A stretch of 63,576 nt of DNA, the filler included, from Hausera hauseri (lineage: Eukaryota), in the NCBI GenBank assembly GCA_046269625.1. It is 10 parts of 10 records of this genome, joined end to end, with 100 filler letters (N's around TTAATTAATTAA, not from the genome) between each part and the next. Parts side by side here need not be neighbours in the genome. Positions count along the whole stretch, not along the records: positions 33,738 to 40,597 come from JBJURY010057774.1; 9 more parts are not named here. One strand, given 5' to 3'. Every line of letters begins with the position of its first letter. The first letter of the stretch is position 1. Positions 33,738 to 40,597 of this stretch are shown here, in pieces. A program made the translations under genes and the position numbers. The notes beneath the pieces were generated by a model that saw only the letters and a program-made list of their open reading frames with translations, was not told the origin of the DNA and ran no database searches.

Positions 33738-33895
33738 CGATATCATAAATAATCGACCAATTTTTTAATTTATTGTTCACAATTTTATATCCTACTATAT
33801 AAATAATGGACTTGAATTCTAATCGTGTATAATTCTGTACAGCTTTTCAACTTATTCGTTTATCCACTTCTCAATTTATAACATTTCTCCTCCCT
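33738..33895 (-). repeat. Polypurine tract (33884-33895) and start of the 3' LTR (33883 to contig end)
   Basis: Minus strand reads AGGGAGGAGAAA immediately followed by TGTTATAAATTG. Confidence 0.75.
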
Positions 33896-34093
33896 GAATG
33901 GCACACTCGGATGTGCCCATTGCGTCAGGAGAGGTGCCGCGGCGACTGGGACTTCGTAATAATTCCATCCGCTGGCTTAGACTAGGTCCAGAACTGGTAC
34001 TTGACTGGCGTTCTCTGGGGTTCGGTTCCAACTCATAACTGTGATAGGGTTTAATTCTAACTATTCGGGTGTAACTACCATTTGAGTAGTACT

Positions 34094-34825
34094 TTAGGTC
34101 TGCGGCCTCAGCTCGGTATATACTGGACATGTGGTCTTTTCATTATCTAATGTCCATTTCTCTAAGCAATCTCTGCAATATTTATTACGGCAATCCGGGT
34201 TATTTAACACTACATATCCTTGTTTTAGGTTTGCCTCACATACGGGGCATTCGTTCTCCTCTTTCACCCAATTTTCTTCGTCTAGATCTACTCTTAACAT
34301 AATCTCAATAGGTTCTACTATTAACCCTTCTTCATCTTCATATAGATAGGCATAGATTCTTTTTTGTTTCGGATTCATTGAGCTTTTTTTGGGATCACAT
34401 CCAACGGCTATCAAGGTCCAATCGCTGATAGTGCCTCGATCTAAATCGGGAGCTTCACCAGTCGATCGGTATTTTTGATATTGTTTCTTTAACAGCAGCT
34501 TAACTGATTTATCCACGGGAACTATTACTTTACCATTTCGTTTGGGTTGAAATATTGGGGCAATATACTTCCCGATTTTGGGATTTTCTCAGACATACGT
34601 GTTCTCGTAAACTTGTCTGGCAGGCAATAGTTTGACAAAGAACATTGCTTCTTTGATCTTTTGTTTACTATAGTACTCGGTGGTTACTAACATCCTGGGG
34701 TAGTCTGCTGTTGTAGCATAATGGACATTTTCTATGGATGTCTTCTTTCGTAAGACATTTATTTCGGTTATTTGTTCTTCCTGCCTTTTTTGTTTTATTG
34801 TGGGTTTCTCAATGCGGGACTGCAT
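34094..34825 (-). pseudogene. Accessory ORF ending in a C3HC4-type RING finger (about 34118-34249)
   Basis: CPVC-x15-CRNKYCRDCLEKW..CPVY; H>N and C>Y are each single-base changes. 34589..34825 and 34094..34516 share a frame. Confidence 0.7.
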
Positions 34826-36138: not shown

Positions 36139-36544
36139 ATTTATTCTCCCTCCATGCGTATAAATATACTGTTCTAGCCTCCTCGGTTGTCCCTTTTAAT
36201 CCATTCGGGATTTCACCAACTTTCCCGTATTGCACAAAACGTTTCCTTTGTAATTCCGTGTTTATTTGCCTATAGACGGCCTTTGAATTTGGGATCCGCA
36301 CTGTCACGTAGTTTTGTAGAAATTCGTCGATACTAAGTCGACTAGTCATTTCCTCCGTGTCGATTCTAAGTCGACTCGGAACTTCCTTGGCGTCGATGCT
36401 AATTCGGCTTGGTTCCATCTGGGTCTGAGTACTTACCAATCTGAACAAAAGAACATAAAGGTTAATCTTAAAACAAAGGATGGTTTTAAACCAAAACCAA
36501 TTCTTTGTTTGATGATAGAATAACCTGATCTGTAATTGTCAGGT

Positions 36545-37950
36545 TATTTTATCATATGGGTCTACAGGGTTCTCCAATTCCTTTAGTTCCCATTCTGAGT
36601 TTTTATGACCCTTAGAATAACAGTTTTTGGTGACTAATCGAAAAATCGCAATTAGTATAATGCGAACAAATGTTGACAGTACCGTGATAGATACGATTGG
36701 TAGTGTAGTTAGTCCCATCGGTACTTGTGTGGTGACCAGAGTTGTGATCCCCTCATCTATATCCTCATATGTATGGGATTCTGTGCGAATCTCATTTAAA
36801 GTTTGCTATGTAATGGTCTAATTTTGCTTATTTTCCGCACATATCTGTACTATATATTCGGCTTGTGGTTTTAATAAATTGCATTCTGTTTGATAAGTAT
36901 TTTTAAATAATGTCACCAGGTGATTATTATACGTTGTCCGACAACTTATATATATATTGTAATTTTGTTTCTCTTCCACAAAGAACACTATCTTAAATCA
37001 ATATGCCGAATATTTAATAGGGATACTTCTTAATTCTCTTTTAGGCACACTAGCCGATGTAATGATTGACATAATGGTACTAATTTGAGTAGCTGGTCTC
37101 CTGGTGGTCGTCGTTACTGAAATTTCCCAATTTCTATTTTCTGGATAGTAAGTTCTCAACTGTATAATTGGTTTATTCGGCCGTACTTCATATAAGTCAA
37201 ATCTTATTCTGAACTATAGGTTTACGGGTATTTCACAGCATGGTTTTTGCACGCCTGCTCGAATAGAACAATATTCTATCTTCGGAGTTGGTCCAACTGT
37301 TGCTTCAAACGTGATACTAATTTCCTGACTGAACGTTAATCCTGTTCTAGAGTCTACTTGAATGCACTGTTTGTCCTTATTCACAGAGATTCTATGAATA
37401 TTTTCGTCTAGTATTCTTATCTCTGGGTCAGTGGATCGTAAGATTTCATTCAGTTTTACTCTTTGATGTCTGTTCCATGCAGGAATGACTAATTGAGAAT
37501 GTGATTTCACTTCAACGTAAACGTCAGTTGAGTATGGCAAGTATAGACGGTAGGTGAGGTTATAAGTGCGTCCAAAGTCTATATCGCAACACTGCGTATT
37601 TTCTCCAGGCTCAAAATCGCAATTTTTCGTTCCTCTTGTGGTTGTATCAAGTAAGACAATTTGAAATCTTCCGAAATCGTAATGCGGTTTCCAAGCTTTA
37701 AATCCAACACATACGGAGTTTGGTGAATAGTAATGAATCGTCATTGATTGCAGTAATTTAGTGTCTACTTGTTTTTGAACTTCTGCTGTTGGCTTCTTTT
37801 TCGTCTTGGTAGTTTCCGATTTCAATCCACTCTTCCGAATTCCGTATATATCTCCTAACGATTATTCATCGTGCCACCATTGGGCTTGTGTTCTTGGGAG
37901 GTAGGAGGCAATTAACGATAATACTAAGACTACCTGAACGTATGCTATTG
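36545..37950 (-). pseudogene. Type I membrane protein: signal peptide, Cys-containing ectodomain, Thr-rich linker, FN3 domain, TM
   Basis: Signal IAYVQVVLVLSLIASYLPRTQA lies in frame after the integrase C-terminus. FN3 signature CNLLKPQAEYIVQICAEN at about 36822-36886; TM LPIVSITVLSTFVRIILIAIF at about 36631-36703. Confidence 0.7.
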
Positions 37951-40597
37951 GTCTAGTAATTATCGACGAAGTTTTTACTTCACGTTGGCGTAAATTATAA
38001 CGTTTGGTGGGTCGTATTTCTGTCTTGACAACTCTTTGTATTGACACAACTTCTTCCTTTCCATTTTTCTCAATATATACTGTAGTTGGCGTAGCCTTTG
38101 TAACCTCGTACGGTCCTCTACCTGTACGAGTCAATTTTAGTGAGGTGCTTTTCTTGGCTACTGAGTAATGCACATAAACCCATTTTCCTCGTTCTATATC
38201 ATGCGGTTTCGCTTTCTTATCATATTGCTTTTTAAATTGTTCTTGACATTCTTGTGATAGTTCTTTGGCAATTTCCCAACACTTTTGTAATCGCGTTTGT
38301 ATCACTTCTGCAAAATTCTGTTCTAAATCTTCGGAATTAACTGTGCAAGGTGTCATTCCTAAATCCGTGGGCAACGCGGCTTCACGTCCGTACATCATAA
38401 AAATGGCGTAAACCCTGTCGCTGGATGTGGCGTGGTATTAATTGCAAATTGCGTTCCTTCCAAAAATTCGTCCCAATCTTTTTGGTCCTTAGCCACTACT
38501 GTAGGCAGTATACGTATGACGGTAGCATTCATTTGTTGAACCATTCCATTACATTGAGGATGATGTGCAGTAGTTGTTAATCTCTCGATTTTGAATATCT
38601 TAGTGATTTTTTCGAATAATTCACTGGTAAAATTTCTTCCTCTACCCGTTAGTATTTGGTCTGGGGGTCCGTATCGACAAATAATTCTTCTTACAACGGC
38701 TTCTTCCAAGGTTTCGGCTTTCTGATCTATCAATGCTATCACTTCGACAAAATAAGTTAGGCGATCGATGCACGTTAAAATATACTTATTGTTCTTGTGA
38801 GTCGTAGGAAGAGGCCCTACGATATCCATCGCCATGGCCTGCATGGGTCTATCGGGTACATCAATTGGTTTTAACTCGGCCATGTAATTTTTCGTCTTTT
38901 TCTCTTTAGTTGCACACACTTCACAAGCATTTACCCAATTTTTCACATCGATATGGATGCTAGGCCAGAAGTATTTATTCATTATTTTTTTAACGCCTTC
39001 TTCCAGGACATGTGTCCGGCTAAGTATGAATCATGTTCTGACATCAGTACTTCGGTTTGTAAACTGTTCGGAATAACTATCAACCTCTTTCCCTTTCGTT
39101 CGTAATATAAAATGTCTCCTTCATTTCCGTCGTTTAAGACGCAGTATTTGTGTCCGTATCTGTGTAAATGTTTCTTTAATTGTCATCCGTTTGGTATAAT
39201 GTCTTTTTTAGCAAATTCTATAATCTGCTGGATAACTTTATCCTTCCTCTGTTCTGTTGAAATCTTGATTGCTCTATCTATTGTTAACACGCGTTAGCGG
39301 TCTAGTATTTCCTCAAGTTGACTTTTCTTCATTACTATTATTGCGCTTGTTTTAGTCTTAAGTCTCGATAGCGCATCGGCGTCTACGTGTTTGTTCGCTG
39401 ACTTATACTGAAACTCAATGTTATATCTGGAGATTTCTTCCATCCATCTATTTAGTCTGCACGTCGGGTTATTGGCTAGACCCTTTAAGGTCGTAACGGC
39501 CTTGTGGTCGGTGAAAATTATAATTTTCTGCCCGTAAACATAAACGTTAAAATGTTGAAGTGCTTCTTTTACTGCTAGAGTTTCTAATTCGGTAACAAAA
39601 TAATTTTTCTCAGCTTTCTTCAAAGAACGTCCTCCATAAGCAATTGGGTGCTCTAATTCTTCATCCTCTCTTTTCTGTGCTAATTCATATCCAGTACCTT
39701 CGTTACTGGCATCTTCCTTAATTATAAATGGTAAACTAAAATCTGGGAATCGCAAAACAGGTTCACTCGTTAATATCTTCTTTATTTCATCAAAGGCTTT
39801 CTGCTCGACGTCTGTCCATTTCCATTTAATCCCTTTTTTAAGCAGACGATATAGAGGCGCATTAATCTTTGAGTTATCTGGTACATAGTTTGCGTAATAT
39901 CCTCAAAGTCCTAGCCAGTGCCTCAACTCTTTCTGATTTTGTGGTTCCATACAATCCGATATTTTATTCAACAACGATTTATTTGGTTTCGACCCTCCTT
40001 CCCCAACTATATGACCAAGGTAGGATACTGCATTTTGAGCCCATTTGCATTTTTTTGGATTTAATTTCAATCCGGCTTGTTCCAAGCGCATCAGCGTATG
40101 TTCAATATCCTTTAAGTGTTCCTCTTCCGTTCTCGATGCTATCATTACATCATCTAAATATGCAAAGGCATGATCTAGTCCGATTAACATTTTGTTTATC
40201 ATTCTTGTAAATATGGCTGGTCCGATAGTAATACCGAACGGAATAACATTAAATTCGTAAACACCATCGTGAGTCTTAAATGCTATCTTATAACGGTCTT
40301 CGTCTTCTATTTCCACTTGCCAATATCCGGATCGTAGGTCCAGAGTAGTAAACCATTTCGCTCCTGAGAGTCTATCTAAGGCCTCTTTCACTGAAGGAAA
40401 AGGGAAGGAATCCTTCATCATAAGATTATTTAGAGCTCGGTAATCGATACAAAATCGGTGCTTTGTAGTGCCTTTCATTAATTACATTTGCCTTAAACAT
40501 TCGTTCAACTTCCTTTGTTATCTCGGGTCTTAGCAAATGTGGTGGAGGGTACCATTTCGGCATCTTCTGATCCTCCAGATCTTTTTCTTCATTTGAA
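37950..40597 (-). pseudogene. pol: Ty3/gypsy pol (RT, RNase H, integrase)
   Basis: YLDD, EDAS/TDHK/ADALSR, integrase zinc finger and DDE core; frameshifted. Confidence 0.95.

Follow-up and report, generated by a model that had tools for sequence, protein, structure and literature searches.

Two decayed Ty3/gypsy copies in Hausera hauseri and a probable shared design with membrane-protein, exonuclease-fold and RING cargo

Why should a membrane protein, an exonuclease domain and a RING finger lie between the integrase and the polypurine tract of a retroelement, and do they belong to the same element as the viral-type glycoprotein found on a related copy? This question is raised by a stretch of 63,576 nucleotides from Hausera hauseri (GenBank assembly GCA_046269625.1), the window, which consists of 10 contigs with N spacers between them and of which contig 6 (33738-40597) and contig 1 (1-7523) are considered here. 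We regard these two contigs as decayed copies from two sister subfamilies of a multi-copy Ty3/gypsy long terminal repeat (LTR) element. Probably both follow one Burro-like GAG-ENV-POL design that exceeds 13 kb, in which a class III fusion protein precedes the protease and integrase is followed by an FN3-like membrane protein, an exonuclease fold that is likely inactive and a RING finger. Relatives (P numbers below) were gathered by a search with the glycoprotein G, which gave 51 proteins, and by two further searches, which gave 7 and 222 long proteins (120 among the matches listed).

The two copies and the cargo behind integrase

On the minus strand, contig 6 holds reverse transcriptase (RT), ribonuclease H (RH), integrase (IN), a cargo region, a purine tract and a terminal TG, in this order. 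Its features are:

39297..40597, minus: RT and RH (RVT_1 5e-36, RT_RNaseH 8e-30)
37990..39296, minus: integrase with zinc domain, core and GPY motif, in three frames (Integrase_H2C2, rve 3e-12)
37877..37963, minus: hydrophobic segment in frame with the end of integrase, likely an internal signal peptide (hydropathy scan; also in relatives)
36698..37876, minus: β-rich ectodomain of about 390 residues, one FN3-like repeat matched (36779-37006), further repeats putative
36620..36697, minus: transmembrane anchor (hydropathy 2.48)
35254..35898, minus: ISG20/REX4-like DEDDh exonuclease fold without catalytic motifs (PDB, Pfam, Atlas)
34121..34255, minus: RING finger (zf-RING_2 7.5e-7, above the curated cut-off)
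33884..33895, minus: polypurine tract (PPT) of 12 nt, adjoining TGT at 33883 (sequence)
33738..33883, minus: likely 3' LTR, first 146 bp, ending with the contig (TGT start after the PPT; depth step)

Contig 1, read on the plus strand, supplies the upstream half and overlaps contig 6 at its end (iE, independent E-value; ORF, open reading frame):

238..1557, plus: helical region with no family assigned, 5' of the ubiquitin-like module
1558..1968, plus: helix and ubiquitin-like (Ubl) module (profile of 6 segments from 5 relatives, iE 4e-9)
2160..2192, plus: AT-hook-like GRP-K motif (read in translation)
2694..4507, plus: class III fusion glycoprotein G of the Monjiviricetes/chuvirus type (PF24664 in three ORFs, E 3e-18, 3e-9 and 1e-19)
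5098..5397, plus: retropepsin protease, PR (RVP 7.8e-7)
5479..5745, plus: dUTPase-like segment between protease and RT (profile of 8 relatives, iE 3e-13)
5931..7523, plus: RT and RH, overlapping with contig 6 (Pfam and alignment)

The two copies align throughout RT-RH (1,584 columns, 74.4% nucleotide identity), in line with the collinear RH reported by an earlier reading made from the sequence alone (the sequence-only reading). At the protein level they are 85% identical, with the same residue at 335 of 393 aligned codons, and the 56 of 64 identical RT residues counted in that reading lie within the 49-61 identities spanned by 64-residue windows. Differences number 47, 28 and 193 at the three codon positions; because they cluster at third positions, the contigs represent separate subfamilies that diverged while functional and under selection. 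They pair as sisters in the RT-RH tree (support 100/100). Their pol order is that of Ty3/gypsy elements, PR-RT-RH in contig 1 and RT-RH-IN-GPY in contig 6, where the GPY motif is found at about 38108-38116. Both are heavily decayed: contig 6 has at least 12 in-frame stops and 5 frame changes, and the G-to-pol frames of contig 1 are broken, as opposed to one intact polyprotein in relatives. Joined over the RT-RH overlap, the composite of the two contigs measures 12,644 bp from the start of contig 1 to the LTR start, a lower bound, and the proposed element length of over 12 kb thus holds if the halves belong together.

In contig 1, the PF24664 match spans 2697-4490, ahead of the protease, the position that it has in GAG-ENV-POL errantiviruses. 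G has an internal signal at its start, a hydrophobic anchor near its end and several broken frames. The counterpart of the Ubl module in P0074 matches Pfam ubiquitin (4.4e-5) and Rad60-SLD PF11976 (1.5e-3), and the dUTPase-like profile matches the true dUTPase of P0120 (E 5e-4). The GRP-K motif, which resembles an AT-hook, has GRP[KR] counterparts ahead of G in P0001, P0003, P0006, P0052 and P0059. A gag profile of 9 relatives matches nothing anywhere in the window; as contig 1 gives no match, gag likely lies beyond its start.

The cargo of contig 6 fills the 3,978 bp that separate the integrase ORF from the LTR start, close to the 4 kb first estimated, and all parts named in the sequence-only reading (membrane protein, exonuclease domain, RING, then PPT and TGT) were recovered, the exonuclease without its catalytic motifs. 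The frame that closes integrase runs on past six stops into a hydrophobic segment, the ectodomain, a second hydrophobic segment and a tail. Comparison of the ectodomain with relatives by direct blastx or phmmer gave no significant match, and the Pfam fn3 match is weak (0.094). A profile of 18 post-integrase FN3-like repeats from 11 relatives, with segment anchors chosen by eye, matches contig 6 at 36779-37006 with an iE of 3.4e-5 (next best 0.58). None of 470 scored shuffles (of 500) equalled this match, and the contig 6 repeat was the top match in 6 of 6 leave-out profiles, with iE below 1e-3 in 5 of them. A model of the P0079 ectodomain from a 6-row alignment (mean predicted local distance difference test score, pLDDT, 65) has tandem FN3 structures as its top Foldseek matches in the PDB (E 3.5e-8) and resembles fibronectin EDB (VIA Z 9.5, rmsd 2.2 over 81 residues); profile A1 found no FN3 match among PDB sequences, the FN3 likeness coming from the fold search alone. 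Profile and model together predict an FN3-like fold for the ectodomain of contig 6.

The exonuclease region gives a weak RNase_T match (0.041), best PDB matches to ISG20L2 (E 0.0016) and ISG20 (0.003), and an Atlas score of 0.94 with 187 shared features; its single-sequence model has a pLDDT of 36.6, too low to use. In this one copy there is no DxE in the first 70 residues, no HxxxxD and no YxxxD, and the ExoII aspartate position is substituted in the alignment, suggesting that the fold is likely inactive. No exonuclease homologue was found among longer proteins (379 candidates, none scored). For the RING finger, 27 of 29 PDB matches are RING or U-box E3 domains (best E 0.003), and the copy is without two of the eight zinc ligands. 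The PPT follows the last ORF. Purine runs of this kind are not rare alone (8 in the window, both strands), and the LTR start sequence is present as a single copy within the window. In the LTR bin the summed contig depth, which differs from copy number and served as a hint only, steps up about 12-fold (11,069 vs 915).

Whether the two halves belong together

The relatives provide the link between the halves. Among the matches listed, at least 28 distinct proteins carry both G and pol, and G lies upstream of RT in one ORF in all 24 that were scanned; in 13 of these 24 intact G-before-pol proteins, the GPY motif is followed by at least two hydrophobic segments. The Ubl profile gave 8 matches beyond its training set, all G-bearing, and 8 of the 28 proteins (among the matches listed) combine Ubl, G, pol and an FN3-like repeat in one ORF. 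The full order found in single natural ORFs is gag, helix-Ubl, G, PR, dUTPase-like segment, RT, RH, IN, signal, FN3 or Ig repeats and transmembrane anchor. The order from Ubl to RING that had been composed from the two contigs is thereby borne out through FN3 and its anchor, and falls short beyond, as none of these ORFs has the exonuclease or the RING. Since the Ubl profile matches contig 1 and the FN3-like profile contig 6, the two contigs bear different hallmarks of one clade. Judged from these sequence relationships, a composite up to the membrane protein is likely, there is a high probability that the contig 6 subfamily also carries G, and the odds are well in favor of the two halves as a whole belonging together.

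Phylogenetic placement was variable. A tree that forces both contigs into the G-bearing clade is not rejected by the approximately unbiased test (p-AU 0.71) and lies 8.7 log units above the quick free tree, and an RT-RH tree of 36 rows places the contigs without resolution. With the integrase core, the top 14 of 128 blastp matches belong to the G-bearing clade, in a protein set that was gathered with clade members and is biased accordingly. In a G tree of 56 rows, contig 1 falls among retroelement G proteins without finer resolution, and these separate from stand-alone G proteins of 650-670 aa by a branch supported at 99/91. Ty3 is the best PDB match for P0015, and the pol of the contigs and relatives is of gypsy type.

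Several results weigh against a shared design. In free RT-RH trees (117 rows; 58 selected rows), contigs 1 and 6 form a long branch that falls outside the G-bearing clade and joins a non-G element (98/93 in the 58-row tree). The count of 8 proteins with all four hallmarks is partly by construction, as the same proteins built the profiles. The FN3-like match falls to 0.12 without P0060 and P0074, an earlier FN3 profile of 8 segments gave no match in contig 6, and hhalign support for the repeat is weak (P 0.018). No exonuclease or RING match was found in the 176 proteins retrieved (best 0.17 and 0.38), and 13 relatives' ORFs stop 27-122 residues past the anchor, where contig 6 has about 919 codons. 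No single copy was found that carries both G and the cargo, and the longest aligned contig pieces are below 900 bp, none of which joins the two.

The strongest rival explanation is a difference in content between the subfamilies: the line of contig 6 would have lost G and become an envelope-less element with FN3, exonuclease and RING, the line of contig 1 would have kept G with other or no cargo, and the composite would never have existed. The DNA of the contigs is 26% different, no spanning sequence was found, the clade gains and loses cargo rapidly (FN3, Ig, ankyrin, C2H2, Bcl-2, extra proteases), and endogenous retroviruses often lose env. Against it, of 11 distinct proteins with an FN3-like repeat, 10 also encode G within that ORF, the eleventh (P0083) starts downstream of the G position, and no other G-less pol protein among the matches listed matches the FN3-like profile. 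We consider such a loss of G unlikely, and a single design shared by both subfamilies the better account.

That the cargo is repetitive was established from the contigs of two runs, aligned to contigs 1 and 6 at 80% likeness. All 30 bins of each contig were covered in both runs. In run X1 the listed depth of long pieces is about 4-10 (one 39) and the summed depth in cargo bins at least 265; individual positions within the RING and exonuclease regions are covered by 28, 26 and 43 differing contigs. All parts are multi-copy and a single-copy host origin of the cargo is excluded, in agreement with the proposal that it lies inside an LTR element. The summed depth also reaches about 32,000-37,000, equal to the RT level, at 36486-36714 and 4268-4518; both bins code for transmembrane segments, and these spikes may reflect a few very deep short contigs.

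The weakest rival treats the exonuclease-RING stretch as a recent acquisition from the host or as a nested insertion, passive and without a role in the element. It can point to the absence of the stretch from any relative's ORF and to the missing catalytic residues, but it is very improbable given that many divergent copies cover the stretch, that its PDB matches are distant with no close host-like match, that it lies on the pol strand without sign of introns and with the same A-rich bias of the sense strand as pol (A 0.37-0.41), that its last frame, reached after frame changes, crosses the PPT and stops just inside the LTR, and that 4 of the 5 frame changes have indels of other copies close by (12 of 27 rows among the matches listed). 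These indels also suggest longer frames in the family.

Other relatives show further content. The intact 3,243-aa G-pol ORF of P0015 matches the arenavirus nucleoprotein exoribonuclease domain at residues of about 110-230 (PDB, best E 3.4e-4); this N-terminal domain has DEDDh-type motifs by eye and is absent from the Pfam matches, and it appears to represent another exonuclease capture by a G-bearing gypsy element, independent of the one in contig 6. P0099 and P0101 have an Ig domain after integrase, the true dUTPase of P0120 lies ahead of G, and P0052 combines seven protease-like repeats with ankyrin and C2H2 domains. The G-pol polyprotein P0007 (HBK71150.1) was deposited as a protein of a Flavobacteriaceae metagenome-assembled genome, and likely stems from an animal contig binned with the bacterium. 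Related loci were found neither in viral contigs nor in genome contigs, and none of 13 distant metagenome-contig loci (1.3-7.3 kb) matches the Ubl, FN3-like, gag or dUTPase-like profiles.

Predicted topology and possible roles

If the shared design is correct, the alternating signal and anchor segments suggest that one polyprotein would cross the membrane of the endoplasmic reticulum twice. G and the FN3 repeats would face the lumen, and Gag-Ubl, PR-RT-RH-IN and exonuclease-RING the cytosol. Cleavage by host signal peptidase at both internal signals would set free Gag-Ubl, the fusogen G and the FN3 protein, and PR, RT, RH and IN would remain cytosolic and be processed by the retropepsin, a scheme derived from the topology and from general knowledge of viral polyproteins.

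G may give particles access to other cells. The FN3 protein could conceivably be an attachment or adhesion partner on the membranes that carry G, a tentative assignment; alternatively, it might modulate the host surface. A surface-binding role fits because Ig domains replace FN3 in P0099 and P0101. Equally tentatively, the dead nuclease might bind nucleic acid or a partner, with the RING recruiting ubiquitination against host restriction factors. More speculative still, and in our view rather doubtful, is the notion that enveloped gypsy elements across a broad clade make their entry machinery from two glycoproteins of one polyprotein, in which a class III fusogen before the protease would be paired with a conserved FN3/Ig type I membrane protein after integrase as receptor-binding partner (compare gD/gH/gL for herpesvirus gB). 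The cytosolic tail would here have gained a pseudonuclease-RING and become a membrane-anchored E3 ligase directed at host defence, and exonuclease folds would have been captured repeatedly, ISG20-like here and arenavirus-nucleoprotein-like in P0015.

Elsewhere in the window, contig 3 (13418-24493) contains another gypsy element in duplicate. The second copy aligns with the first in direct orientation for 1.5 kb (86%) and in inverted orientation for the following 1.4 kb (82%). The contig also has a 414-aa ORF (19064-20308) without Pfam match. Contig 5 carries broken-frame fragments of glycogen debranching enzyme (31953-33241; hDGE_amylase 4e-12, hGDE_central 8e-20), possibly a captured host mRNA. 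A GNAT_acetyltr_2 fragment (2e-16) is located at 52152-52505 in contig 8, upstream of a gypsy element, and contigs 7 and 8 hold related gypsy copies with 64% identity.

Comparison with known elements

The sequence-only reading knew of no described LTR retroelement with this content, a view that does not stand: the Burro/GYPSM1 layout (PMC6431247), GAG-ENV-POL elements of 10-13 kb (PMC13524379) and post-pol exonucleases of rotifers (PMC5408684) are known. The headline layout is thus not new, and no new kind of element is defined. The element appears to work like Burro, with which it is compared by description and not by sequence. Burro reportedly has single-pass transmembrane ORFs as well, and the membrane protein may be partly noted there.

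According to the sections of PMC6431247 drawn on here, Burro/GYPSM1 is a giant gypsy-like LTR element of planarians (>30 kb, against a lower bound of 12.6 kb here) with gag, a Ubi2/SUMO-like PF11976 module, an in-frame mononegavirus-type env, PR and a dUTPase-like segment, and with ankyrin, BIR, BCL2 (between Ubl and env) and MATH as cargo. The likeness extends to an env of mononegavirus fusion type between gag and protease and, in contig 1, to the Ubl module upstream of G and the dUTPase-like segment between PR and RT (PMC6431247). Ubiquitin- and apoptosis-type cargo is also shared, relatives here having ankyrin repeats (P0052, P0074, P0083) or Bcl-2 ahead of G (P0002). In the 29 ORFs of contigs 1 and 6, BCL2, MATH, BIR and ankyrin gave no Pfam match at E 0.1, where decay may mask weak ones. 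In contrast to the element described here, those sections name neither an FN3 protein nor an exonuclease, and their mention of RING concerns the AIR1 motif (PMC6431247).

Ty3/gypsy errantiviruses of GAG-ENV-POL order with an ENV of the herpes simplex virus (HSV)/gB type are described from Nematoda, Bryozoa and Platyhelminthes, and share with our element a chuvirus/gB-type glycoprotein upstream of pol; the bryozoan and Macrostomum entries with LTR coordinates measure about 10-13 kb from LTR to LTR (PMC13524379). The main text of this source has no occurrence of exonuclease, fibronectin, RING, ubiquitin, ankyrin, immunoglobulin, accessory or polyprotein, and does not discuss post-integrase cargo. 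Anakin has a captured chuvirus glycoprotein of the same class, but is, as far as its description is used here, a BEL/Pao and not a Ty3/gypsy element (PMC7642597, cited in PMC13524379 and PMC12440569). Troyka was rejected as a counterpart, given the CG termini and the lack of envelope and GPY in the part of its description consulted (PMC12440569).

The closest precedent for the downstream cargo is provided by Juno and Vesta of bdelloid rotifers, which have a dUTPase between PR and RT and, downstream of pol, a DEDD-type exonuclease or small transmembrane ORFs (PMC5408684). In the portion of that paper used here, their nuclease is DEDDy, RNase D-like, with intact catalytic residues and in a separate ORF3, whereas that of contig 6 is ISG20/REX4-like, without catalytic motifs, beside a RING and behind an FN3 membrane protein. 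We found no published description of a conserved post-integrase FN3/Ig membrane protein or of a pseudonuclease-RING tail, in a search outside of which Repbase and the primary Burro/GYPSM1 descriptions fall.

Seen against these systems, the main value lies in the post-integrase membrane protein, with FN3, Ig or other ectodomains, of 13 of the 24 intact G-before-pol polyproteins. The entry mechanism of gB-carrying errantiviruses is stated as unknown in the text of PMC13524379 considered here, and a surface protein encoded by the element itself is a concrete candidate for the attachment partner that is lacking. Further evidence that such elements gather anti-host accessory genes in the manner of complex viruses comes from the pseudonuclease-RING tail.

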